From the NCBI GenBank assembly GCA_965228895.1, contig OZ245842.1, positions 3,008,001-3,072,000 on the forward strand: DNA of 64,000 nucleotides, in the 5' to 3' direction. The notes beneath the pieces were generated by a model. That model was not told where the DNA came from, made no database searches, and worked only from the letters and a program-made list of their open reading frames with translations. Positions 9,407 through 54,671 of this stretch are shown one piece after another (position 1 is the first letter of the stretch; the number at the start of each line of letters is the position of its first letter). The position numbers and the translations under genes were made by a program. This stretch comes from Alphaproteobacteria bacterium. GTDB taxonomy: Bacteria; Pseudomonadota; Alphaproteobacteria; SP197.

Positions 9407-10159
9407 ATGGAAACAGAACCCATCCTGAAGCCGGGCGCGGTGGCGCTTGTGACGGGCGCCAGTGTCGGTATCGGCAAGGCGATCTGCATGCGTTTGTTGG
9501 AACAGGACGCGAAGCTGATCGCTGTCGCGCGCAACCGTGACCGGTTGGAGGCCTGCTTCAGCGATTACAGCGACAGCGTTCACGCGTTGCCGCTTGACGT
9601 GACCGACGGTCCGGCGGTCGCCGGGCTCATCGATAACCTGCCCGAGGCTTGGCGCGAGATTGACATTTTGGTCGCCAACGCCGGTTCGGATGTCGGCGGC
9701 CGGCGGCCGTTCTGCGAGGGCGATGTCGAGGATTGGGCGTCGACGGTCGAGACCAACGTGAACGGCGTTGTCAGAATCTGCCACGCCGTCTTGCCCGGCA
9801 TGCTGGCGCGTGGCCGCGGTCACGCGGTGATCGTCGGCTCGATTGACGCTTTGGGCACGCGTCCGGGTGGCAATGTCTATGCAGCGACCAAACATGCGGT
9901 ACATGCGCTCGCCGACGGTCTGCGCAAAGACTATGCGAACGATCCCATCCGCATCACCGAAATTCTGCCTGGCCTGGTGCGCACGGGTTTTGCCGAGGCC
10001 CGCTTTCGCGGCGATGAGGAACGGGCGGATGCGTATTATGAGTCGTTCGCCGCGTACCTCGAGGCCGACGACATCGCCCGCAGCACCATGTTTGCGTTGA
10101 ATCAACCGGCCCAGGTCAACATCGCGCAAATGGTCATCGTCCCGACGGGCGACAAATAG
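9407..10159 (+). CDS. SDR oxidoreductase (YdfG-like NADP-dependent 3-hydroxy acid dehydrogenase)
   Basis: TGASVGIG, LDVTD, ANAG, YAATK, ITEILPGLVRT. Confidence 0.9.
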   Translation: METEPILKPGAVALVTGASVGIGKAICMRLLEQDAKLIAVARNRDRLEACFSDYSDSVHALPLDVTDGPAVAGLIDNLPEAWREIDILVANAGSDVGGRRPFCEGDVEDWASTVETNVNGVVRICHAVLPGMLARGRGHAVIVGSIDALGTRPGGNVYAATKHAVHALADGLRKDYANDPIRITEILPGLVRTGFAEARFRGDEERADAYYESFAAYLEADDIARSTMFALNQPAQVNIAQMVIVPTGDK

Positions 10160-44003: not shown

Positions 44004-44930
44004 ATGGCACCCAGGCTTGGAATCAACCATCTACAGATGCTGACGGCCATCGTCGAGACCGGCACGGTCGCGGAAGCCGCACAGCTCTTGGGCGTGACAC
44101 CGTCCGCGCTGAGCCACAGGATCCGCGAAGCCGAGCGGCGCCTGGATCTCGCCCTCTTCACGCGGCTCGGCCGTCGCCTGCGCCTGACCCCGGCGGGCGA
44201 ACTGCTGCATCAAGCGTCCGTGCGCCTGCTCGACGAGCTGGAACAGGTCGAGACCGCCGCCCAGAAGATGGGGCACGGCATCGAGGCCGTGGTGCGCCTG
44301 GGCATTGCGACCTACAGCAGCTACCACTGGCTGCCGGATTTCCTGAACCGGCTGCACGAGGCCGCACCCGCGATCGAGGTCGAGGTGATGGCGAACGCGG
44401 TCCAGCGGCCGCTCGCCGCGCTACAAGAAGGGGACATCGATCTGGCGGTCGTGCCCGACGTCCTGATCCCGGCCGGCATGACGGGCTTGCCGCTGTTCGA
44501 CGACGAACTGGTCGCCATCATGTCGCCAGAGCACCGCCTGGCGACACGCGAAAGCGTCGAGGCCGCGGACTTCCGCGAGCACGACGTCCTGACCTATAGC
44601 TTCACCAACCTGCCCGGCCACGAACTGGATCTGTTCTGGCGCCCGGCCAACGTGTCGCCACGCCGCATCATTCGTGTTGAGCTGATCGACGCGATCGTCG
44701 ACCTGGTCAAAGCCAATCTGGGCATCGCCATCGTGCAGCGTTGGGCGATCGCACCGCACCTTGAGACCGGTGCCCTTGCCGCCTGCCGCCTGACCGAAAC
44801 AGGCCTCAGCATTCCCTGGAGTGTCGCGCGACGCAGCACGGGTGAGCACGACGACGCCGTCACGACCGTTGCTGAATGTTTGGCCGATTGGAGCCGGGCC
44901 CGCGATGGCGGGTTCGCGGCGAGCAGTTAG
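44004..44930 (+). CDS. LysR-family transcriptional regulator (MetR-like)
   Basis: GTVAEAAQLLGVTPSALSHRIREAE HTH, YHWLP, full substrate-binding domain. Confidence 0.92.
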   Translation: MAPRLGINHLQMLTAIVETGTVAEAAQLLGVTPSALSHRIREAERRLDLALFTRLGRRLRLTPAGELLHQASVRLLDELEQVETAAQKMGHGIEAVVRLGIATYSSYHWLPDFLNRLHEAAPAIEVEVMANAVQRPLAALQEGDIDLAVVPDVLIPAGMTGLPLFDDELVAIMSPEHRLATRESVEAADFREHDVLTYSFTNLPGHELDLFWRPANVSPRRIIRVELIDAIVDLVKANLGIAIVQRWAIAPHLETGALAACRLTETGLSIPWSVARRSTGEHDDAVTTVAECLADWSRARDGGFAASS

Positions 44931-45011
44931 ACGTCATCCGGCCTTCTGCGTTCATGGCCTTCGCTGCTGCCGTCTATAGAATGGGCAGGTAACGCAACGG
45001 AGATGGGCGCC

Positions 45012-46415
45012 ATGGCCGAGAACAGAACCGACGACGTTCGCCGCTATGCAGAAGAGCAGTTCCAGCAGACGCTGAAGCGGTTGAGCGGTTACATCGCCTT
45101 TCCCGCCATTTCGTCCGACCCCGATCACGCCAAGGATGTCGTGGCGCTGGCGCACAAGATCCGCGACGACCTGGAAGCCTTGGGTTTCGATAAGGCGCGT
45201 GTGTTGGAGTTGGACGGCGCGCTGCCCTCGGTCGCCGCCGAGCGCATGGATGGCGGCCCCGGCAAACCGACGGTTCTGATTTACGGTCACATGGATTTGC
45301 AGCCGGTCAAAGGCGAGCCGTGGAACACACCGCCCCATGAGACGGTCGAAATTGACGGCCGGCTGTACGCCCGCGGCTCCGGCGACGATATGGGCGGTTG
45401 GGTCAGCCACCTCGCCGCCATCGAAGCGTGGCTTGCTGTCGTCGGCACGCTGCCAGTCAACGTCAAGCTGATCATCGAGGGTGAAGAGGAGATCGGCTCG
45501 CCCAACCTGGTGGGTTACATGGACGCCTATCCCGACGTGTTCGACGCCGACGTCATGGTGCTGACCGATTGCGACAACCCGTCAACGGAAATTCCCGGGC
45601 TGACGACATCGCTGCGCGGTCTGTTGGAGATGGACGTGACGTGCGAGGCGTTGGAGTCCGATGTGCATTCCGGCATTTGGGGCAACGTCGCACCGGATGT
45701 GTCGACAACTTTGGTCAAGGCATTGGCGCGCCTCGTCGACGATGACGGTCGGTTTGCGCTGGGCCGTGTCGATGTGCCGAAAGCCTGGCGCGACACCGCG
45801 CGCGAGCTGCCGTTCGATGCGGCCACTGTCGAGAAAGGCGCACACATCATCGACGGTGTCACGGCCTTGCCCGAGCGTGGCCGCACGCTCGCCGAATGGG
45901 CGTGGCGGCAATCGGCACTCACCATCCTTTCGACGACCTTGCCTCGGCCAGGACGCGAGAAGAACGCGTTGCGTCATGCGGCGACGGCGTCATTGTCGAT
46001 CCGCGTCGCGCCAGGCCAGGATCCCGACGCGCTCGCGGCGGCAGTCATCGAAACACTGACCGACGACCCGCCCGGCGGCGTCAAGCTCACGGTCAGCGAA
46101 CGTCCGGGCCACGGCGATGCCTGGCTCTATGAACCCAAAGGCCCCGCTTTCGAGGCAGCCGGGCGCGCCTACCGCAAAGCCTGGGGGCACGACCTCATGC
46201 AGATCGGCATCGGCGGGTCGATACCGTTCGTCGCGCTGTTCGCCGAACGCTTCTCTCACCTGCCACTGATCTTGAACGGCGTGCTGGATCCCGCCAGCTC
46301 GATTCACGGCCCCAACGAATCCATGGACCTCGGCGTGTTCAAAAAGGCAATCGCGACGAACGTCTACCTGTTGGCCGAACTTAGCGCGCTGAACGACCTG
46401 ACAGCCGCACCCTGA
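45012..46415 (+). CDS. M20 family dipeptidase/deacylase
   Basis: YGHMDLQP, ARGSGDD, EGEEEIGS, HSG, GGSIP, HGPNES. Confidence 0.9.
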   Translation: MAENRTDDVRRYAEEQFQQTLKRLSGYIAFPAISSDPDHAKDVVALAHKIRDDLEALGFDKARVLELDGALPSVAAERMDGGPGKPTVLIYGHMDLQPVKGEPWNTPPHETVEIDGRLYARGSGDDMGGWVSHLAAIEAWLAVVGTLPVNVKLIIEGEEEIGSPNLVGYMDAYPDVFDADVMVLTDCDNPSTEIPGLTTSLRGLLEMDVTCEALESDVHSGIWGNVAPDVSTTLVKALARLVDDDGRFALGRVDVPKAWRDTARELPFDAATVEKGAHIIDGVTALPERGRTLAEWAWRQSALTILSTTLPRPGREKNALRHAATASLSIRVAPGQDPDALAAAVIETLTDDPPGGVKLTVSERPGHGDAWLYEPKGPAFEAAGRAYRKAWGHDLMQIGIGGSIPFVALFAERFSHLPLILNGVLDPASSIHGPNESMDLGVFKKAIATNVYLLAELSALNDLTAAP

Positions 46416-46563
46416 CAGCGGTTTTGCGCTGTTTGCCGTTATCACCGTGCGTACACCGCTTATCAAGCCACGGTGAAGTCGCCGTGCATGCCGTTGATGT
46501 CGTGATCTCGCCGCTTACGTAGAGGTAGGGACCGGGAATGCTTTAACTGCATGGACCGGCACG

Positions 46564-46683
46564 ATGAACGACAAACACACCACCTCCTCCTTATCCGGAT
46601 GGCGCGAACTGATCGTCTATTGCGGTTTCGCCACCGTGGTTTCCGTCGCCAATGTGGGCGTCGCGATGCTGGTGCTGTTCTAG
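46564..46683 (+). CDS. WREL-motif membrane microprotein 1 (39 aa), unannotated
   Basis: MNDKHTTSSLSGWRELIVYCGFATVVSVANVGVAMLVLF*; paralogous to 47936-48055 and 49594-49707. Confidence 0.8.
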   Translation: MNDKHTTSSLSGWRELIVYCGFATVVSVANVGVAMLVLF

Positions 46684-46728
46684 CAGCGAGCCAGCGTTCT
46701 GCCCCGACCGGCACAAGGAGGCGTACCC

Positions 46729-47766
46729 ATGCCCCGACGAACGATCGTTCTTTTACTGAGATGGTTGCCCGCCGTGTTGGCGACGGGCTGGCTGGCCAGC
46801 TTTATCTGGGACACCGACAGCGGCGGCGCGGTCGAGACCATACCAATCGACCAAGGCGTGGTGCGTGTCTTCGTGACCGGGCCGCGTGGTGACGTTACGG
46901 GCACCGGTCTGGTGGTCGACGGCAACGGCCACGTCGCGACGAACTTCCACGTCATCCAATCGCATCTGGAGAACGGCTGGCCGCTGGGCGTCGGTGAACC
47001 CGGCCGCGGCAGCGACGAGCGGTTGGCCGCGACCGTTGTCGCCGCTTATCAGGGCGAGGACCTCGCCATTCTGCATGTCGAGAATCTCGACACTCTACCT
47101 GTCACTTTTGCCGCACCAACCGATGATGCCTTGGGTAAGGGCGCGGATGTCTTTGCGATTGGCTATCCAGGCGCGGCCGACCGGTTGGGTCCCGCCGATG
47201 ACGCCAGTCTGGCGCCGGGCATTGTCAGCCGCATCTTTGCCGGCCCGTGGTCCGACGGCGGTCCGATGATCGGTATCATCCAGCACACCGCGCCGACCAA
47301 CCCGGGCAACAGCGGCGGTCCGCTGGTTGATGCCTGTGGCCATGTCGTCGGCATCAACTCGCAGCGCGAAGTCAGAATGATTTTAGGTCCAGGCGGTGTA
47401 CCGCTGGTTACCGACCCAATCCAGGGTGTGTTCTACGCATCCGCAGCAGCAACGCTGGTCGAGAAGCTTCGCGATCTCGGCGTGAGCTATGTATCGGCGC
47501 CAGGCATGTGCGGCCCGGTCGGGTCGTCGACCACGCGGGAACCTGCGTTCGGATCGTGGATGGCGGTGTTGTTGATCGCGGCAGCGTCGGGCGCGGTTGC
47601 AATCATGAGACCGAAACCCGGCGTTCGCGTGATGGTCGATTGTGGCGCCTTTGTTGGCGACTGCGCCAAAGCCGTCGCCCGCACCGCCAAACACCTTAAC
47701 GCCGACGACCGCGGCCGCGATGTCGAGATCGTCATGATCCCCGACAGGCGCTCTCCTGACAGATGA
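46729..47766 (+). CDS. Trypsin-like (S1) serine protease with N- and C-terminal hydrophobic segments
   Basis: ATNFHV (His), DLAIL (Asp), NPGNSGGPL (Ser); AGGAGG RBS. Confidence 0.88.
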   Translation: MPRRTIVLLLRWLPAVLATGWLASFIWDTDSGGAVETIPIDQGVVRVFVTGPRGDVTGTGLVVDGNGHVATNFHVIQSHLENGWPLGVGEPGRGSDERLAATVVAAYQGEDLAILHVENLDTLPVTFAAPTDDALGKGADVFAIGYPGAADRLGPADDASLAPGIVSRIFAGPWSDGGPMIGIIQHTAPTNPGNSGGPLVDACGHVVGINSQREVRMILGPGGVPLVTDPIQGVFYASAAATLVEKLRDLGVSYVSAPGMCGPVGSSTTREPAFGSWMAVLLIAAASGAVAIMRPKPGVRVMVDCGAFVGDCAKAVARTAKHLNADDRGRDVEIVMIPDRRSPDR

Positions 47767-47792
47767 CGAAGAGCGGGCCGCTGTTCGCAATC

Positions 47793-47867
47793 GTTGATGG
47801 CGGTCACAAAATGTGGCGAGAACGTGCCGCCAATCCTCGCAGTGACATCAATGTGATGCCGGTCAAT
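47793..47867. promoter_or_regulatory. Two CRP/FNR-family boxes upstream of microprotein 2
   Basis: GTTGA-TGGCGG-TCACA (47793-47808) and TGTGA-TGCCGG-TCAAT (47852-47867). Confidence 0.6.
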
Positions 47868-47935
47868 TGCATCGGAATGGCGCGAATCCTACGTATCACC
47901 CATAGAGCGCGGTGACGGTTAGACGGACAAAATCG

Positions 47936-48055
47936 ATGAACAAGAAAAGCAACAACAAGGGTTCAGGCAACTGGCGGGAGCTGGTGCTTTACACCGGCCT
48001 CGGCACCATGGTTTGTGTCGTCAATGTGGCGCTGTCGTCGCTGCTGCTGTTCTAG
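47936..48055 (+). CDS. WREL-motif membrane microprotein 2 (39 aa), unannotated
   Basis: MNKKSNNKGSGNWRELVLYTGLGTMVCVVNVALSSLLLF*; stop overlaps the convergent gene stop in CTAG. Confidence 0.8.
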   Translation: MNKKSNNKGSGNWRELVLYTGLGTMVCVVNVALSSLLLF

Positions 48056-49215
48056 GCATTCGACGGCCATGGCGCGGTGAGCCATGCCGCGTCCATATCC
48101 GCAGCGCGCGGACAGCCGAGTTCCCCCAGCACGTGCAAGAGTTCCTGACGTAGGATCTCGATCACATGGTCGCCGCCGGCCTCACCCAGCGCCGCGATCG
48201 CGAACATGAAGCTGCGTCCGCTGAACGTGAACTGGGCGCCGCGCGCCAGCCCGCGCACCACATCGAGACCAGTTCTAATCCCGCTATCCAGCATTACCGT
48301 TGTCTTGTCGCCGACCGCCTCGACGATCTCGGGCAGGATGTCGATGGTCGCACGTTCGCCATCGAGCTGCCGGCCACCGTGGTTCGAGACGATGATGCCG
48401 TCGGCGCCCAGGTCGACGACCAGTCGCGCATCGTCGGGATGCTGGATGCCCTTCACGATCAGCGGCCCCTGCCACTGGCGCCTGATGTCGCCGAAGTGCT
48501 CGCGCGACATCGGACCCGTGAACTGACGCCCCAGGAAGGTCACGCTTTCCTTCATGTCCATCTTGTTGTCGACATAGGGCTCGACCGTGCGGAAATACGG
48601 CAAGCCGTGGCGCAGGGTCGCGATCGACCAAGCCGGCGCCAAAGCCGCTTGTACGAAGTTTCGCCAGGTGATGCGCGGCGGGACCGAGAAACCGTTGCGG
48701 ATGTCGCGTGTACGGCGCGCCTGCACCGGCACGTCGATGGTGACGATCATGGCGCCGAAACCGGACGCCTGGGCGCGGCTGATCAGATCCTTTTCGATGG
48801 TTCGGTCGGCCGGCGGATAAAGCTGGAACCACGCGTGATCGCCGCCGATGGCGCCGATTTCCTCCATGACGGCCGTCGAAACCGTGCTGAGCAAATACGG
48901 AATGCCGGCGCGTTTGGCCGCGCGGGCCAGCATCGCTTCGACCCCCGGCCACACCAGACCGGCCTGGCCGATCGGCGCCACGCCAATCGGCAGGGCATAT
49001 CTTGTACCGAAGACGTCCATGGAAAGGTCTGTGTCGCAGACGTCGACGAAAAATCGCGGCGTCATCAAGACCCGATCGAAGGCCTCCCGATTGCGCGCCA
49101 CCAAACGCTCCTGCCCCGAACCGCCGGCCAGATAATCCCAGGCAAACCGCGGGATACGCCGGCAAGCCCGACGCTCCAGGTCGGCGACGGAGGGGTAGCG
49201 CTGCATCAACGTCAT
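48052..49215 (-). CDS. lldD: FMN-dependent alpha-hydroxy acid dehydrogenase (L-lactate dehydrogenase-like)
   Basis: AWDYLAGGS, WFQLY, TIDVP, IVKGI, VSNHGGRQLD, DSGIRTGLDV, GRSF. Confidence 0.88.
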   Translation of the reverse strand: MTLMQRYPSVADLERRACRRIPRFAWDYLAGGSGQERLVARNREAFDRVLMTPRFFVDVCDTDLSMDVFGTRYALPIGVAPIGQAGLVWPGVEAMLARAAKRAGIPYLLSTVSTAVMEEIGAIGGDHAWFQLYPPADRTIEKDLISRAQASGFGAMIVTIDVPVQARRTRDIRNGFSVPPRITWRNFVQAALAPAWSIATLRHGLPYFRTVEPYVDNKMDMKESVTFLGRQFTGPMSREHFGDIRRQWQGPLIVKGIQHPDDARLVVDLGADGIIVSNHGGRQLDGERATIDILPEIVEAVGDKTTVMLDSGIRTGLDVVRGLARGAQFTFSGRSFMFAIAALGEAGGDHVIEILRQELLHVLGELGCPRAADMDAAWLTAPWPSNA

Positions 49216-49234
49216 GGGCGATGTCCCTGAACAA

Positions 49235-49374
49235 CGAGAGCGGATCATGGTTAGGTGGAACCGTTTGACGGTTCCACCTAACCATGTGAATCCACTCTCT
49301 ATCTATGAATAGAGCAGATTCACCCGTCTTGATGCCATCGCGGAGCGATTCCATCAAAACAGGATCTGCTCTAG
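49235..49374 (+). repeat. Double-hairpin interspersed repeat, copy 3
   Basis: TGGTTAGGTGGAACCG-TTTGA-CGGTTCCACCTAACCA plus TAGAGCAGAT...ATCTGCTCTAG. Confidence 0.85.
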
Positions 49375-49507
49375 AGGCCGAGAGGTTAGCCGGGATCGCC
49401 GCTACGAACAGCGGGTCGAACGAATCAAACCGGCCGGACGGCCGCCGACTACTCCGTTAGTAGTATATTAAGGAATTTGGGTTAAGCGTTGATTCGCCAG
49501 CAGAAAG

Positions 49508-49523
49508 TGTGATGGCCATCAAT
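49508..49523. promoter_or_regulatory. CRP/FNR-family box upstream of microprotein 3
   Basis: TGTGA-TGGCCA-TCAAT followed by TG, as at 47852; centre about 78 bp from the ATG versus about 76 bp for microprotein 2. Confidence 0.6.
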
Positions 49524-49593
49524 TGTCTGGCATGTGACTTGCACTAAGGATAGCGGTGACGAAAACTCTTACCGGGCAGGACGGCCCACGGTC

Positions 49594-49707
49594 ATGAAAC
49601 AAAAGAAACAGGGATCGCCGAACTGGCGGGAACTCGCCGTCTACAGCCTGATCGCCACCGGGATCACCGTCGTCAACATCACCATCTCCTCGCTGCTTTT
49701 CTTCTAG
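49594..49707 (+). CDS. WREL-motif membrane microprotein 3 (37 aa), unannotated
   Basis: MKQKKQGSPNWRELAVYSLIATGITVVNITISSLLFF*. Confidence 0.8.
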   Translation: MKQKKQGSPNWRELAVYSLIATGITVVNITISSLLFF

Positions 49708-49778
49708 ACCCCGTCCCTATCTTGTACACGGGCCGGCCGGTCTTGAACCGGCGTGGCACATGACGCGCATCTGATCAT

Positions 49779-50774
49779 CTAGTCGCGGCAATCGAACGCG
49801 GCCCACAGGGGGTAGTGATCGGACAGCCGGTGCTGCACAACGGACTTCGAGAAACCTTTGTCCTGATAGAGAAACGGCACGAAGTCGACCATGCCGGCGC
49901 TGTCGAACGTCATGTTCAGACGCCGTTTCCTGCCCGACGTGAACCACGCGATCTGGTCATAGTACTTTTCGAGCTGGGCATCGTTGTCATCAGCAAAAAT
50001 CGAGCGCTTAACCTTGTGCAACGCATCGGGCACCTCAAGGCCCGTGCTGGTAAACGCCTTCCATAGCGGGTCGCCATGCCGGTCGATGTTGAAATCGCCG
50101 AGCGCAATGAAGTTCTGGCCATAGGCATTGGCTTGTTTGGCCCAGCGATCGAGCCATTCGGCGATTGCCTTGAGCTCGGGCACCCGCCCGGACGAAGACT
50201 TGCCGAAGTCGACATGAAGCGTCACCAGGGTGAACGTCTCCGAACCCGCCTGAAAACTCACCGCATAGGGCGTACGCGCGAACTGGCGCTGCAGGGCGTC
50301 AGAACCAACCGCGCCCAGTTCCTCTTCCGGCACCACGAGTTCACCGGCGAGACCCGATAGATTGGCCCGCGTCGTATCGAAGATGAAACCCATACGCTCG
50401 CTGTTACCGGCGTTGCCACGGGTGACGTCGGTCATCAAAAACCGCCACGACGGTCCCAGCGTCTTCATCATGGTGCGAAGCGCGCGCAGATCGCCTTTGA
50501 TCTCCTGGATCGCAATGACGTCGAAACGCGAGACGATCTCGGTGATCGCCCACAAACCGCGAAAATCCCGCTTGGGGCTGTCGCTGCCCGATGCCGTCCA
50601 TTTGCGGGTCAACGACGAGAACGCCTTGATGTTCCATGTCGCGATCAGAAGGTTACGGTCGGCCTGGCGCTTCGGCGGGACCGTTGCGTCCAGCTCGGCG
50701 CGCAGCGCCGTCATTTCGTCTTTCACCGCAGCCGGCGAAGCAGCGGCTTGCCATGATGGCAAGGGATCGGACAT
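49779..50774 (-). CDS. Endonuclease/exonuclease/phosphatase (EEP, DNase I-like) family protein
   Basis: ATWNI, DVIAIQEI, ARTPY, LGDFNI, YDQIAW, SDHYPLW. Confidence 0.9.
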   Translation of the reverse strand: MSDPLPSWQAAASPAAVKDEMTALRAELDATVPPKRQADRNLLIATWNIKAFSSLTRKWTASGSDSPKRDFRGLWAITEIVSRFDVIAIQEIKGDLRALRTMMKTLGPSWRFLMTDVTRGNAGNSERMGFIFDTTRANLSGLAGELVVPEEELGAVGSDALQRQFARTPYAVSFQAGSETFTLVTLHVDFGKSSSGRVPELKAIAEWLDRWAKQANAYGQNFIALGDFNIDRHGDPLWKAFTSTGLEVPDALHKVKRSIFADDNDAQLEKYYDQIAWFTSGRKRRLNMTFDSAGMVDFVPFLYQDKGFSKSVVQHRLSDHYPLWAAFDCRD

Positions 50775-50881
50775 CGGCGGAGCCCCCGGCGGTTCGTATT
50801 GGACCGGGCGTTATGATCGCACGAAATGCCACCGTGACCACCATGACGGCATCCGATACCCGAAACGCAGGTTCGTGCGAG

Positions 50882-51853
50882 TTAGAGGCTCTCGCCGCCG
50901 GCGGCCGGGATCTCCTCGGTGTCGCCATCACCTGTGGCCGCGGAGGCATCGGTGTCATCGGCGCCAAGGCCGTCGGCCTCGCTCGCACCACCGGCCGCTT
51001 GGCTGGGCAGCGGCACCGTCCACTCGCCGTCGACGACGCGGCCCATCTCGAGGATCAGATCGCGCGGCACATCGCCGATCAGGCTGTAGGAGCGTCCGGC
51101 GGTGCGCCAAAAGAGTGCGCTGACCAACCCCTCCTCCATCACCGTCAGGCTCGTCTCGCTGCTTTCCGCATCCGGACTATAGAAGAGTTCGACCCGCCGG
51201 CCGGCTTCGGACTCGTAGACCAGCTGCATCGCGCTCTCGTCGCTTTCCGAGAGCAGCCGGGCGCCAACGAGATTGAAGCCGAACACGCTGAAGTCCGGCG
51301 CGCCGTGCCCAGGCGCCGCTGGTTCGGCCGTACCGTCTTCCAGCACGGTTGTTGTCGCATCCGCAGCCGAACCGTCGTCGGAAACCTGTTGTACCGTGGC
51401 AGCGTCATCACCCTGCCCCGTCGAGAACAGGGCGAAGAGATCCTGATCGGCTGGACCGCCGATCACCGCGCGCAAGCCAACGGCGATCGCGCCCAACATC
51501 ACGACGGCAAAAACGGCGGCAGCGGCAAGCTGCAGGGGCAGCCGCAGCCAGTCGGCGCGATAACCCTGCCGGATCTCGTTGCCCTGGCTGGCCCGTTCGA
51601 TCGCCAAGCCCAGCTCGACATGCTGGGGCGGCAACGGCGCCTCCAGCCGCTTGTCGAACAGGCGATGCAGGTCCTGGCGGATCAGCCGCCCGCTGCGCAC
51701 ATAGGCCGCAGCCTCCGCATCCGCCAGCAGATAGCGTTCGACCGCCTCGCGTTCGGTGTCGTCCAGTTCGCCATCCAGATAGGCATCAAGCACGCCGTCG
51801 CCCCACGGCACCTGTTTGCCGCCCTGGTTCGCGTCCCTGTCGCTTGTGTCCAT
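50882..51853 (-). CDS. Transmembrane anti-sigma factor
   Basis: LDAYLDGELD..ER.AVE.YL N-terminus, one TM, APDFS.FGF.LVGARLL, QLVYE, YSLIGD; directly after the ECF sigma gene. Confidence 0.85.
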   Translation of the reverse strand: MDTSDRDANQGGKQVPWGDGVLDAYLDGELDDTEREAVERYLLADAEAAAYVRSGRLIRQDLHRLFDKRLEAPLPPQHVELGLAIERASQGNEIRQGYRADWLRLPLQLAAAAVFAVVMLGAIAVGLRAVIGGPADQDLFALFSTGQGDDAATVQQVSDDGSAADATTTVLEDGTAEPAAPGHGAPDFSVFGFNLVGARLLSESDESAMQLVYESEAGRRVELFYSPDAESSETSLTVMEEGLVSALFWRTAGRSYSLIGDVPRDLILEMGRVVDGEWTVPLPSQAAGGASEADGLGADDTDASAATGDGDTEEIPAAGGESL

Positions 51854-51854
51854 A

Positions 51855-52412
51855 TCAGTTGATCTCCGCCAGCTTCGGCCGTTCAGCCTTGTCCATGCCG
51901 TTCATCAGTGCGCGGCGTGCCCGCGACAGCCGCGACATCACCGTACCGATCGGGATATCCAGGATGTCAGCAGTCTGCCGGTAACTGAACCCTTCCAGAC
52001 ATACGAGTAGAATCACGGCTCTTTGTTCCATGGGCAGCCGCGATATGGCCAAAAAAAGTTCGTTGAGCTGCACCGCGTGTTCCTGGTTGGCGGCGACCGG
52101 CAGTTCCATGGTCAGGTCTTCCATGGCGATGTGGTCGCCGTCACGGCCGTAGCGCAGTTGCGACACCCTGACATTGTGCAGGATGGTGAAGAGATAGCCG
52201 CGCATGTTGCGAATCTTGCGGCCATCGCGCATCGCGGCCAGCCCACGCTGCAAGGTTTCCTGCACCAGATCATCGGCATCGGCGCTGTTGCCGACCAGCG
52301 ATAGCGCGTAACGGCGAAGCCCTGCGATGCTGCTGCGTAGTTCGTCGGACAAGGATTGCAAGAAGCTGCCCCCGTTCCCCAGCGTTGGCGAACGGGTAGC
52401 TTGGTCTGGCAT
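51855..52412 (-). CDS. ECF RNA polymerase sigma factor
   Basis: LRRYALSL...ADDLVQETL, YLFTILHN (region 2); LP.EQRAVILLV.LEGFSY...IPIGTVMSRLSRAR (region 4). Start uncertain. Confidence 0.92.
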   Translation of the reverse strand: MPDQATRSPTLGNGGSFLQSLSDELRSSIAGLRRYALSLVGNSADADDLVQETLQRGLAAMRDGRKIRNMRGYLFTILHNVRVSQLRYGRDGDHIAMEDLTMELPVAANQEHAVQLNELFLAISRLPMEQRAVILLVCLEGFSYRQTADILDIPIGTVMSRLSRARRALMNGMDKAERPKLAEIN

Positions 52413-52472
52413 TGGGTAGAGAATGTGGCAAGGCGTGCCGAGGTCGCACTTTTTTTGCCGCGGCACGATGAC

Positions 52473-52677: not shown

Positions 52678-52811
52678 ACTCCATGGGGTGACAGGTCGCA
52701 TCAACGCGATCGGCCACGTCGCCCAGCGAGCCAACCCATCGCCAGGTGAACGAATCGAAAGGATGCGGCCTGTCGTCTTTCATAGCGAACCGCAGCGAAG
52801 GAATGGATTTC

Positions 52812-54671
52812 ATGCGCCTCAAAGACCTACTTCTGACGGCCAGTGTCAGCGCCGCCGCACTCGGACTGGGAACCGCCCATGCTGGTCAGCTTCTGATCGG
52901 CGGCATGGACGCGATCGACGTCCCCCAACAAAACGCCCTTTTCCTCGCCCAAGCGGATGCCGACGGCGGCGACGCTGGCGGTGATGGCGGCGGCGACGGT
53001 GGCGACGCCGGGGGCGGCGATGCCGGAGGCGACTCTGGCGGCAGCGATGGCGGCGGCGACGCTGACGGCGGTGGCGATAGCGGTGGTGGTGACGCCGATG
53101 GTGGCGGCGATGCAGACGGCGGCGCCGGCGACTCAGGCGGTGAGAGCGGCGGCGACGCCGGTGCCAGTACCGGCGGCAATGCTTCGGCCAGCGGCAACAG
53201 CTCAGCGAGCGGCGGCAATGCCTCCGCGTCGGCCAGCGCATCCGCCAGTGCCGGCGGCGGTTCGGCCGGCGCCGAAGCCGAGGGCTCGGCATCCGGCGAC
53301 AACGCGTCAGCCGGCGCCAATGCCAGCGCGGGCGTATCCGGCGATGGCGATGGTGCCTCCGCGGACGCCGGTGCTTCGGCCTCGGCCGATGGCGACGGGG
53401 CATCGGCCGGCACATCGGCCAGTGCGGATGCCGGAACCGACGGTGACGGTGCGTCGGCCAGCGCCGATACCGGTGCATCCGCATCGGTCGACGGTGCCGG
53501 CACGGCCAGCGCATCGAGTGATGCCAGCGCCAGCGCGTCTGTCGGGGATAGCGGCGGCAGTGCCGAGGCCTCGGGCGATGCCACCGGCGACGTTGCCGGC
53601 AACGGCTCGACCGAAACCGGCACCGAGCTCAGCGCGTCGACCGGCGGCAGTTCGGCAAGCGTCGACACAACATCGAGCGCCAGCGGCGGCACATCAGCCA
53701 ATGCCTCGAGCAGCGGTGATGCGTTCTCATCGTCCAATGGCGATGTCGCGATTAGCGGCGCATTGGGTAGCGCGGATGCGGATGCCGAAGGCGATGGCGC
53801 AACCGCTTCGGTCGGCGTCGATACGTCCGCTGGTGCCAGTGCAAGCGACACGTCGATCGACACCGGAAGCTGGAGCGGCGCCGATGCTTCAGCTGACGGC
53901 GACGGAGTAGCATCCGCTTCGGCGTCAGGCGCATCGGTCGCCGCAGCCATCGACGGCGAAGCTGTTGGCGGTTCGATCGGCACAGCGACCAGCAGCGCGG
54001 AAGGGGAAGATCCGTCAGCGTCGTCGGACGTCAAGACGGGTGTCGAGATCTCCGTCGATGACAGCACGGTGGCCGAGGCCAATGCCATGGCCGCCGCGAG
54101 TGCCGCGGTCGAAGGCGAAGGTGCGGTCGAAACGTCGGCAGCCGGCAGCAGCGAGGCGTCCTATCAGGACGGTGAGGCCAGTGCCGATGCTGAGGCCGAA
54201 GCCGAGGCGAGCGCCCAGGCGCAAGCCGACGACGCCGATGACGGCGTGCCGACGGCATCAGCCCAGGCGACCGCAACCGCAGTCGCCTCCGTCACCAACG
54301 ATGACGGGACGACCGTGACCGCGACAGCCATGGCGACCGCCATGGCCGAAGCAGTCGGCAATGCCAGTGCGGCAGCCCAAGCAGCGGCCAGTGCAGCGGC
54401 CCATGCCGAGGGGGCCTCGTCTGCCACGGCGGCAGCGGAGGCCGCGGCCCAGGCCGGCGCCGCAGCCAGTGCGGCCGCCCAAGCGGCAGCACAAGCCCGG
54501 TCGCTCGCCGACACGATGGGCACGGCCGAAGCCCACGCCCAGGCACAGGCGGCAGCCAAGGCGGCGCTGAGCGCCGAGGCCAATGCCGAAGCGGCGGCGG
54601 ACGCAGCAACCGTCGTTGTCGGCAGCCTCGCCGGCGCATCCGCAAGCGTCGATGGGGTGGCTGCTCCGTGA
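52812..54671 (+). CDS. Secreted low-complexity Ala/Ser/Gly/Asp-rich repeat protein (619 aa)
   Basis: Sec signal MRLKDLLLTASVSAAALGLGTAHA, (GGD)n block, ASASA..DGDG repeats, Ala-rich tail; AAGGA RBS; codons vary while the amino-acid pattern holds. Confidence 0.85.
   Translation: MRLKDLLLTASVSAAALGLGTAHAGQLLIGGMDAIDVPQQNALFLAQADADGGDAGGDGGGDGGDAGGGDAGGDSGGSDGGGDADGGGDSGGGDADGGGDADGGAGDSGGESGGDAGASTGGNASASGNSSASGGNASASASASASAGGGSAGAEAEGSASGDNASAGANASAGVSGDGDGASADAGASASADGDGASAGTSASADAGTDGDGASASADTGASASVDGAGTASASSDASASASVGDSGGSAEASGDATGDVAGNGSTETGTELSASTGGSSASVDTTSSASGGTSANASSSGDAFSSSNGDVAISGALGSADADAEGDGATASVGVDTSAGASASDTSIDTGSWSGADASADGDGVASASASGASVAAAIDGEAVGGSIGTATSSAEGEDPSASSDVKTGVEISVDDSTVAEANAMAAASAAVEGEGAVETSAAGSSEASYQDGEASADAEAEAEASAQAQADDADDGVPTASAQATATAVASVTNDDGTTVTATAMATAMAEAVGNASAAAQAAASAAAHAEGASSATAAAEAAAQAGAAASAAAQAAAQARSLADTMGTAEAHAQAQAAAKAALSAEANAEAAADAATVVVGSLAGASASVDGVAAP

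Follow-up and report, generated by a model that had tools for sequence, protein, structure and literature searches.

Known small membrane proteins work through helix contacts with larger complexes, at least in the part of a review of such proteins on which we draw here (PMC12648545). Type I toxins, another group of very small hydrophobic proteins, have been sought by a set of features that, in the sections of Fozo et al. 2010 (PMC2887945) covered here, includes a length of less than 70 amino acids (aa), one predicted transmembrane helix and a location in multi-copy or tandem intergenic loci; the same sections treat a polar or charged C-terminal tail as a hallmark of the group. Here we analyse three small paralogous genes that invite comparison with both groups. 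They lie close together in a stretch of 64,000 nucleotides (nt) from an alphaproteobacterium (the window; positions 3,008,001 to 3,072,000 of the forward strand of contig OZ245842.1, GenBank assembly GCA_965228895.1), in a genome of 5,528,408 bases that forms a single contig with 62.4% G+C. Their products are candidate single-pass membrane microproteins.

The three open reading frames (ORFs; c1, c2 and c3 denote copies 1, 2 and 3) occupy 46564..46683, 47936..48055 and 49594..49707 on the forward strand, exactly where a preliminary description of the window had placed them and with the translations that it had given. Both c1 and c2 encode 39 aa followed by TAG and c3 encodes 37 aa followed by TAG; all three end in TTC TAG, as had been noted. 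An alternative start is possible for c2 at an in-frame GTG at 47912, which would yield 47 aa; its ortholog in G002, one of two other genomes of the genus considered here (the second is G001; the present genome is G000), has an in-frame ATG upstream at 9857, and a metagenome protein, P0025, carries the same extension. c2 and c3 are present as called genes of this contig in a public protein collection (P0026 and P0022, respectively). When the three peptides are aligned they have in common M1, K4 and ten residues (W, R, E, L, Y, T, V, N, L and F), the latter in a gap-free stretch of 27 residues, so that the proposed 27-residue span from W to the terminal F with ten invariant positions is borne out. 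Identity between paralogs is 38–44% at the protein level, c1 being the most divergent and fastest-evolving copy and c3 the most conserved. In the nucleotide alignment similarity is moderate (mean column identity 68% including flanks), about 60–70% of the DNA being common, and local alignment reveals no clear extension of the similarity beyond the ORFs.

The three ORFs are real genes under purifying selection on the protein. The ratio of nonsynonymous to synonymous divergence (dN/dS, omega) lies between 0.055 and 0.25 in seven of seven within-genus ortholog pairs (c1, 0.14–0.21; c2, 0.24; c3, 0.055–0.21). Concatenating the 114 codons that can be compared between G000 and G002 gives a dN of 0.063, a dS of 0.33 and an omega of 0.19, and the 38 differences are split 8/5/25 over codon positions 1, 2 and 3. 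Twelve codons change the amino acid; when the 38 differences were placed at random 20,000 times, no placement gave 12 or fewer. For comparison, five flanking genes show omega values of 0.06–0.14 with a dS of 0.59–0.65. The preliminary description had argued for selection on the protein, as opposed to a DNA repeat, from the different synonymous codons used at conserved residues (CGC/CGG, GAA/GAG, CTG/CTC, TAT/TAC and AAT/AAC); these differences are found in the sequence, and the argument is upheld by the low omega in all pairs and the bias toward third positions. Homologues that preserve the frame exist, and dN/dS is well under 1; the absence of the former, or a ratio near 1, would have spoken against coding status.

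One might still suppose that the ORFs are untranslated and that their conservation reflects a DNA or RNA element, a supposition to which the weak Shine-Dalgarno-like sequences (GGA 8–17 nt upstream, identified by eye) lend some colour. We consider this very unlikely: apart from the third-position bias and the omega of 0.19, frame and stop are kept in all 44 distinct family sequences described below, with every length variation falling upstream of the conserved W, and the paralogs share a protein while sharing only part of their DNA. Rfam returned no match for the small-gene DNA, and the putative mRNAs fold no better than shuffled sequences (z of +0.88, +0.50 and -0.65). One aspect of the divergence is less ordinary. 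Relative to G002, the dS of c2 and c3 is 0.22–0.24, about one third of that of the flanking genes, the dS of c1 being unexceptional at 0.58. To judge from this comparison, the low values hint at an added constraint on RNA or DNA, such as overlapping regulatory or antisense sequence, or at the noise inherent in 37–39 codons. A near-identical strain, X2, differs at nine positions over 46300–49266, the seven listed all lying outside the ORFs, and is too similar to be of use.

As the preliminary description had proposed, we searched the present genome with a hidden Markov model (HMM) built from the three peptides. Among 134,247 stop-to-stop frames (at least 20 aa, filters off) only c1–c3 match, with E-values from 4e-25 to 3e-22, the next best frame standing at 1.9; the resemblance goes far beyond chance. 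An HMM of the whole family finds the same three copies only (next best E 1.2). Beyond this genome the family is rare. It is found in two of the 40 nearest reference genomes, both from the same genus, and in two of 32 other genomes of the order, which are again a same-genus pair. None of 400 genomes sampled from the phylum contains a member. A sample of 400 genomes from the class produced a single weak match (E 6.3e-4 per genome), which corresponds to helix 1 of a 196-aa GtrA-like ORF (PF04138). We rejected kinship in this case: aligning the family against 12 GtrA-like sequences with hhalign gave a probability of 33%, and that single sequence is the only one to score (16.7 bits). A scan of genome contigs yielded 14 pattern matches, of which three passed tblastn and one, the G001 contig, is real; L013 and L014 were discarded as members, the motif merely falling within long unrelated frames. 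None of the eight pattern matches among viral contigs is a relative.

Larger collections are more productive. A profile of eight peptides from the genus, run against 1.84 billion proteins, recovered 13 representatives at E<=1e-3, five of them at E<=1e-10, and a second profile run against 5.8 billion proteins recovered 32 clusters. All 32 are unnamed or labelled 'hypothetical protein' and have no Pfam domain, and most are encoded on short metagenome contigs; DNA was at hand for three metagenome loci. The known range is thus one alphaproteobacterial genus plus a few dozen metagenome sequences. Longer or fused forms of the family were absent from the 8000 candidates scored, which is weak evidence by the tool's own rating.

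Pooling 48 sequences gave 44 distinct cores, where the core runs from the W position to the C-terminus. Its length is exactly 27 residues in 44 of 44 cases, with no insertion or deletion. L4 and Y7 are found in all 44 cores, R2 and E3 in 42, W1 in 40, N18 in 39 (the other five have Ser) and the terminal Phe in 42. In 41 of 44 sequences the start Met lies 7–14 residues ahead of the W position, and the intervening stretch is variable. The Asn is followed by the pattern N-x-S/T in 29 cores, which we read as part of a Ser/Thr-rich distal helix and not as a glycosylation site. When each core is assigned to its nearest copy in the window, 33 fall to c3, 6 to c2 and 5 to c1. This makes c3, the closest form to most relatives from outside the genus, the general form of the family and marks c1 and c2 as derivatives specific to the lineage; c3 might be the ancestral, widespread form, with c1 and c2 as older duplicates that would have been retained as distinct genes within the genus.

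Does this family have a name? Pfam and NCBIfam contain no family matching any of the three peptides at E<=10, in keeping with the preliminary description, whose author did not recognise the family and had allowed that a match to a characterised one would remove its novelty. PADLOC and PHROGs have none at E<=1, the PDB holds no significant match (best E 0.12), and the best score in the Atlas, 0.85, falls short of the 0.9 taken as lead level, the look-alikes being other unnamed clusters of 37–41 aa. A phage or defence origin is unsupported, given that PADLOC and PHROGs have no matches and viral contigs no relatives. Full-text literature searches by motif strings (which returned one unrelated plant paper) and by the topics of type I toxins and small membrane proteins did not surface the family; the organism was not a search term. 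Judged by these comparisons, it is an undescribed family in a well-known class, that of small membrane proteins.

Assignment to this class relies on predicted structure. In the AlphaFold2 model of c3, computed with a 15-row alignment, the N-terminus is disordered and residues 11–36 form one helix; the predicted local distance difference test score (pLDDT) has a mean of 83, with values of 91–96 in the helix. The proteins measure 36–39 aa, and their best 15-residue span holds 8–12 hydrophobic residues; by prediction, then, they have what defines small single-pass membrane proteins, namely a length under about 50 residues, a single hydrophobic helix and the lack of a catalytic domain. A short N-terminus of 9–12 residues, usually rich in Lys/Arg, leads into the helix, which begins at the conserved motif [PA]-[ND]-W-R-E-L-x-x-Y-S and carries small or polar residues at A11, T12, T15, N18, S/T20 and S/T22, the Asn being located two-thirds along. 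The single-helix architecture with a membrane-embedded Asn that had been suggested from the letters alone thus held up, insofar as the modelled helix and the conservation of N18 can speak to it. The suggested polar or basic N-terminus fared less uniformly: of 41 distinct sequences, 30 carry a positive net charge there, 8 are neutral and 3 negative, and the N-terminus of c1 is uncharged. Because of the positive-inside rule, we infer that the N-terminus is cytoplasmic and that the carboxylate of the C-terminal Phe is exposed at the periplasmic face.

The surroundings of the genes bear on how they might act. Upstream of c1 lies an M20 peptidase gene (45003-46415, forward strand), preceded by a gene for a LysR regulator (44004-44930, forward), both assigned by Pfam/NCBIfam. 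The unrelated genes that separate the copies, described at the outset as a protease and lldD, are a Trypsin_2 (HtrA-like) protease on the forward strand between c1 and c2 (46729-47766, Pfam/NCBIfam) and, on the reverse strand, a member of the FMN_dh family of FMN (flavin mononucleotide)-dependent alpha-hydroxy-acid dehydrogenases (48052-49248), LldD-like, which scores below the curated LldD and MftD cut-offs and whose 3' end is overlapped by the stop codon of the convergent c2. Past c3 and convergent with it, an Exo_endo_phos-family gene (49779-50774, reverse) ends 72 nt beyond the small gene. It is followed by an anti-sigma-like gene (50882-51853, reverse; no Pfam match and a weak NCBIfam antisigma match under the cut-off) and an extracytoplasmic function (ECF) sigma factor gene (51855-52466, reverse; Pfam/NCBIfam).

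The order M20, c1, c2, FMN_dh, c3 and convergent Exo_endo_phos is kept in G002 and in part in G001. All three copies are in place in G002, the second species of the genus, and c1 and c3 are present in G001, the third. The c1 orthologs are located at L009:10060-10176 (reverse strand) in G002 and at L011:56-172 (reverse strand, with a TGA stop) in G001, the c2 ortholog at L009:9720-9839 (reverse strand) in G002; c3 has orthologs in both. c2 is missing from its syntenic place in G001, a 500-contig assembly, where unrelated sequence is found instead; this sequence (L010:1-300) contains G+C-rich hairpin repeats. Either the lineage lost c2 or the contig, being metagenome-assembled, is chimeric.

In G002 c1 and c2 stand in tandem, separated by 220 nt that contain no protease gene. 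The protease is also without an ortholog in either G001 or G002, where the closest sequences are other HtrA-like genes with 42% identity across the trypsin domain; it is therefore an insertion peculiar to this strain and does not belong to the unit, and we ruled it out as a functional partner. The protease itself has hydrophobic segments at both ends, no PDZ domain and a G+C content at third codon positions (GC3) of 0.73, which is below that of its neighbours. A strong AAGGAGG, 45 nt past the stop of c1, pairs with CCUCCUCC inside c1 in the minimum-energy fold, and some coupling between c1 and the protease through this predicted pairing is possible.

Outside the genus the company changes. At L015 a beta-lactamase-family gene, the small gene and a convergent Exo_endo_phos gene are found, the C-terminus of the latter's product resembling that of its counterpart in the window; at L016 the small gene follows a 134-aa ORF of no known identity and faces convergent DUF1638 and homocysteine methyltransferase genes; at L017 it is accompanied by a short-chain dehydrogenase/reductase (SDR) gene and a convergent HupE/UreJ gene. 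With neighbours differing between the three loci, the small genes appear to stand alone. No neighbour recurs across L015–L017 and the genus except, in the closest relatives, the convergent Exo_endo_phos gene, a member of a nuclease/phosphatase family.

Taking these observations together, we suggest, with a probability of about one half, that the family comprises single-pass membrane microproteins of N-in/C-out topology that are made from stand-alone genes and act through helix-helix contacts. Each of the separately placed genes would give rise to one such protein, the helix of which would pack against a larger membrane protein, or the helices against each other, and thereby modulate or stabilise the resulting assembly. 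An action like that of known small membrane proteins is suggested because there is no enzyme-sized domain and because polar residues are conserved within the helix.

Several observations weigh against this interpretation. Toxin-like genes would account at least equally well for the clustered, multi-copy arrangement and for a distribution that is both narrow and patchy. Known accessory microproteins are usually encoded in or near the operon of their partner, unlike the genes described here, and the loci examined offer no partner candidate and no co-occurring gene that would point to one. Since 11 of 41 sequences have an N-terminus without net positive charge, the topology may not hold for all members. 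Finally, the conserved residues had seemed by eye to occupy one face of the helix, an impression that the numbers do not support: the helical moment of conservation at 100 degrees is matched by 7677 of 20,000 shuffles over the whole helix and by 4243 of 20,000 over positions 4–27. The list of functions offered in the preliminary description (regulator or accessory subunit, type-I-toxin-like peptide, signalling precursor) has been little narrowed.

A more specific version of the helix-contact interpretation can be put forward tentatively, as something we would sooner expect to fail than to hold. In this version the proteins would be founding members of an unseen family of transmembrane modulators, whose exact length and C-terminal Phe would be read on the periplasmic side by a partner complex or through self-assembly of the proteins into a pore, and from which three non-redundant paralogs would have arisen in a single marine alphaproteobacterial genus.

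The main rival is that the peptides are type-I-toxin-like, in other words that they oligomerise in the inner membrane, dissipate its potential when made, are silenced by antisense or convergent transcripts and form a multi-copy chromosomal toxin locus. We regard this as doubtful, with several observations in its favour. Like Ibs, Ldr/Fst, ZorO, TisB and Hok, to the extent that the type I literature covered here describes them, the present proteins are small, hydrophobic and single-helix, are encoded in multi-copy or tandem intergenic loci, have a narrow range and belong to a kind often left unannotated. In terms of the search features of Fozo et al. (those cited above), they are under 70 aa with one predicted helix, and three copies lie within 3.2 kb in intergenic regions of their own; c1 and c2 are in tandem in G002, and the taxonomic range is patchy as well as narrow. 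Furthermore, longer genes converge on both c2 and c3: the 3' end of FMN_dh covers the c2 stop and the Exo_endo_phos gene terminates shortly past c3, and read-through from these could therefore supply antisense RNA. The reduced dS of both copies, noisy as it is over so few codons, also hints at constraint at the RNA level.

One observation against a toxin concerns the C-terminus. A polar or charged tail is missing, because the protein ends with the helix, at core position 27, in all 44 cores and nothing follows the terminal Phe. The present proteins also depart from the type I toxins, as these are portrayed in the portions of the literature used here, in having no DNA similarity that clearly extends outside the ORFs and no strongly structured mRNA. 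In addition, the locus is chromosomally stable and syntenic, with paralogs that have diverged deeply and are nonetheless each conserved. To our knowledge, the described type I families come almost entirely from Gammaproteobacteria and Firmicutes. No alphaproteobacterial family is named in the type I toxin literature covered here, the relevant parts of PMC2887945 included.

A further idea starts from the conserved end of the protein. Its free C-terminus, hydrophobic-x-Phe-COOH, might act as a periplasmic ligand for a PDZ-type or otherwise C-terminus-reading protease or sensor and so provide an envelope-stress input, possibly to the adjacent ECF sigma/anti-sigma pair. There is precedent in that outer-membrane-protein C-termini ending in Phe activate DegS. 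The near-invariant terminal Phe and the fixed distance from WREL to the C-terminus in every core are as this idea would have it, c3 is closely followed, on the opposite strand, by the genes for the ECF sigma factor, the anti-sigma-like protein and the Exo_endo_phos protein, and at L015 too the c3-like gene faces a convergent Exo_endo_phos gene. We nevertheless consider it quite unlikely: no PDZ protein is encoded in the neighbourhood, the sole protease nearby has no PDZ domain and occurs in this strain only, the link to the ECF genes amounts to adjacency in close relatives, and a terminal aromatic residue is also a common anchor at the membrane interface.

Least probable, along with the untranslated reading considered above, is a precursor role, in which the peptides would give rise to modified or exported products, either bacteriocin-like or of the kind known as ribosomally synthesised and post-translationally modified peptides (RiPPs), including a mycofactocin-like link through the FMN_dh gene: the peptides are short and paralogous, and the FMN_dh-family gene next to them falls into the Pfam family that also contains MftD, but no radical-SAM, YcaO, lanthipeptide, transporter or immunity gene occurs among the ten neighbours in the window or the nine at L015–L017, the FMN_dh protein scores 220 bits against MftD where the cut-off is 471 (so that membership of a mycofactocin or RiPP system, in the absence of a maturation enzyme, was rejected), FMN_dh is not found at L015–L017, and the conserved part is a 24-residue hydrophobic helix, atypical as a core peptide.

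Returning to the helix-contact microproteins that we favour, the sequences upstream of the genes give some indication of how they may be controlled. In the three successive 60-nt blocks that precede c3, identity between G000 and G002 is 92%, 92% and 83%, compared with 60–78% upstream of c1 and c2. This conserved non-coding stretch (49414..49593), which also lies upstream of the divergent FMN_dh gene, has no match in Rfam and is a putative promoter or regulatory region. An 18-nt motif, TGTGATGCCGGTCAATTG, is located at 47852..47869 on the forward strand, 67–84 nt before the ATG of c2, and 15 of its 18 positions are matched at 49508-49525, 69–86 nt before the ATG of c3. The local alignment of the c2 and c3 upstream regions is scored as highly by 9 of 300 shuffles, so that similarity between the upstream regions of the paralogs is marginal, and the motif is kept in G002 and G001; it may represent a shared promoter or operator element. 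Scanning 46300–49900 for the sigma-70 consensus produced no sites. A pattern noticed by eye about 40 nt before each ATG (TTGnnn-N16/17-TAnnnn) was set aside, having no support beyond the upstream alignments.

Three other features of this part of the window deserve mention. The ECF sigma, anti-sigma-like and Exo_endo_phos genes form an apparent operon (49779-52466, reverse strand) that is convergent with c3; upstream of the sigma gene an ECF-like promoter, GGAAT-N16-CGTC, can be made out by eye, nothing like which is conserved at the small genes. The spacer between c3 and the start of FMN_dh contains a hairpin-forming repeat of 138 bp (49237-49374), which has 135 blastn matches in the genome, 73 of them of at least 110 nt, and piles up at high depth in aligned DNA runs. 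Its absence from G002 explains the 137-nt difference in spacer length between the two genomes. Beyond the sigma gene, a 641-aa ORF at 52746-54671 has no Pfam match at E<=0.001.

That such a family exists is unsurprising in itself, there being many undescribed families of small proteins. Annotation tends to miss small membrane proteins, and partners are known for few of them. The present family makes a clean test case by virtue of strong purifying selection and an uncommonly rigid architecture: the helix has a fixed span of 27 residues, Leu and Tyr never vary in it and an Arg-Glu pair hardly does, an Asn is buried, and Phe comes last. Identifying the partner of the helix, or proving a silent toxin, would lengthen the short list of microproteins that are understood. 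If the toxin-like alternative were true, the family would be one of type-I-like membrane toxins in Alphaproteobacteria. In either event a family profile would let annotators name genes that are currently unnamed.

How, then, do these proteins compare with those already described? They share with AcrZ, KdpF, CydX and MgtS, as far as the portion of the review used here covers these examples (PMC12648545), a length below 50 aa, a single helix, the lack of a catalytic domain, conserved polar or small residues within the helix and a tendency to be missed by annotation. They differ from them in showing no sequence similarity, as judged by Pfam and NCBIfam, and in not being encoded with a partner; they differ further in comprising three diverged paralogs in one 3-kb stretch, in being confined to one genus among reference genomes and in ending exactly where the helix ends. 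YohP of E. coli is likewise a very small single-helix membrane protein and, according to the part of the work on it considered here, depolarises the membrane, blurring the line between regulator and toxin (PMC12719787). It belongs to a different sequence family and a different lineage. In design, though in nothing more, two other proteins come to mind. Prli42, a tail-anchored miniprotein of Listeria by which the stressosome is tethered, resembles the present family in that its N-terminus is short and basic and the helix after it forms the end of the protein, and sarcolipin/phospholamban, which regulates a P-type ATPase through a helix with a functional Asn, resembles it in the conserved Asn of the transmembrane helix. 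What sets the present family apart from both is where conservation resides: in the helix and its juxtamembrane WREL motif, not in the basic N-terminus.

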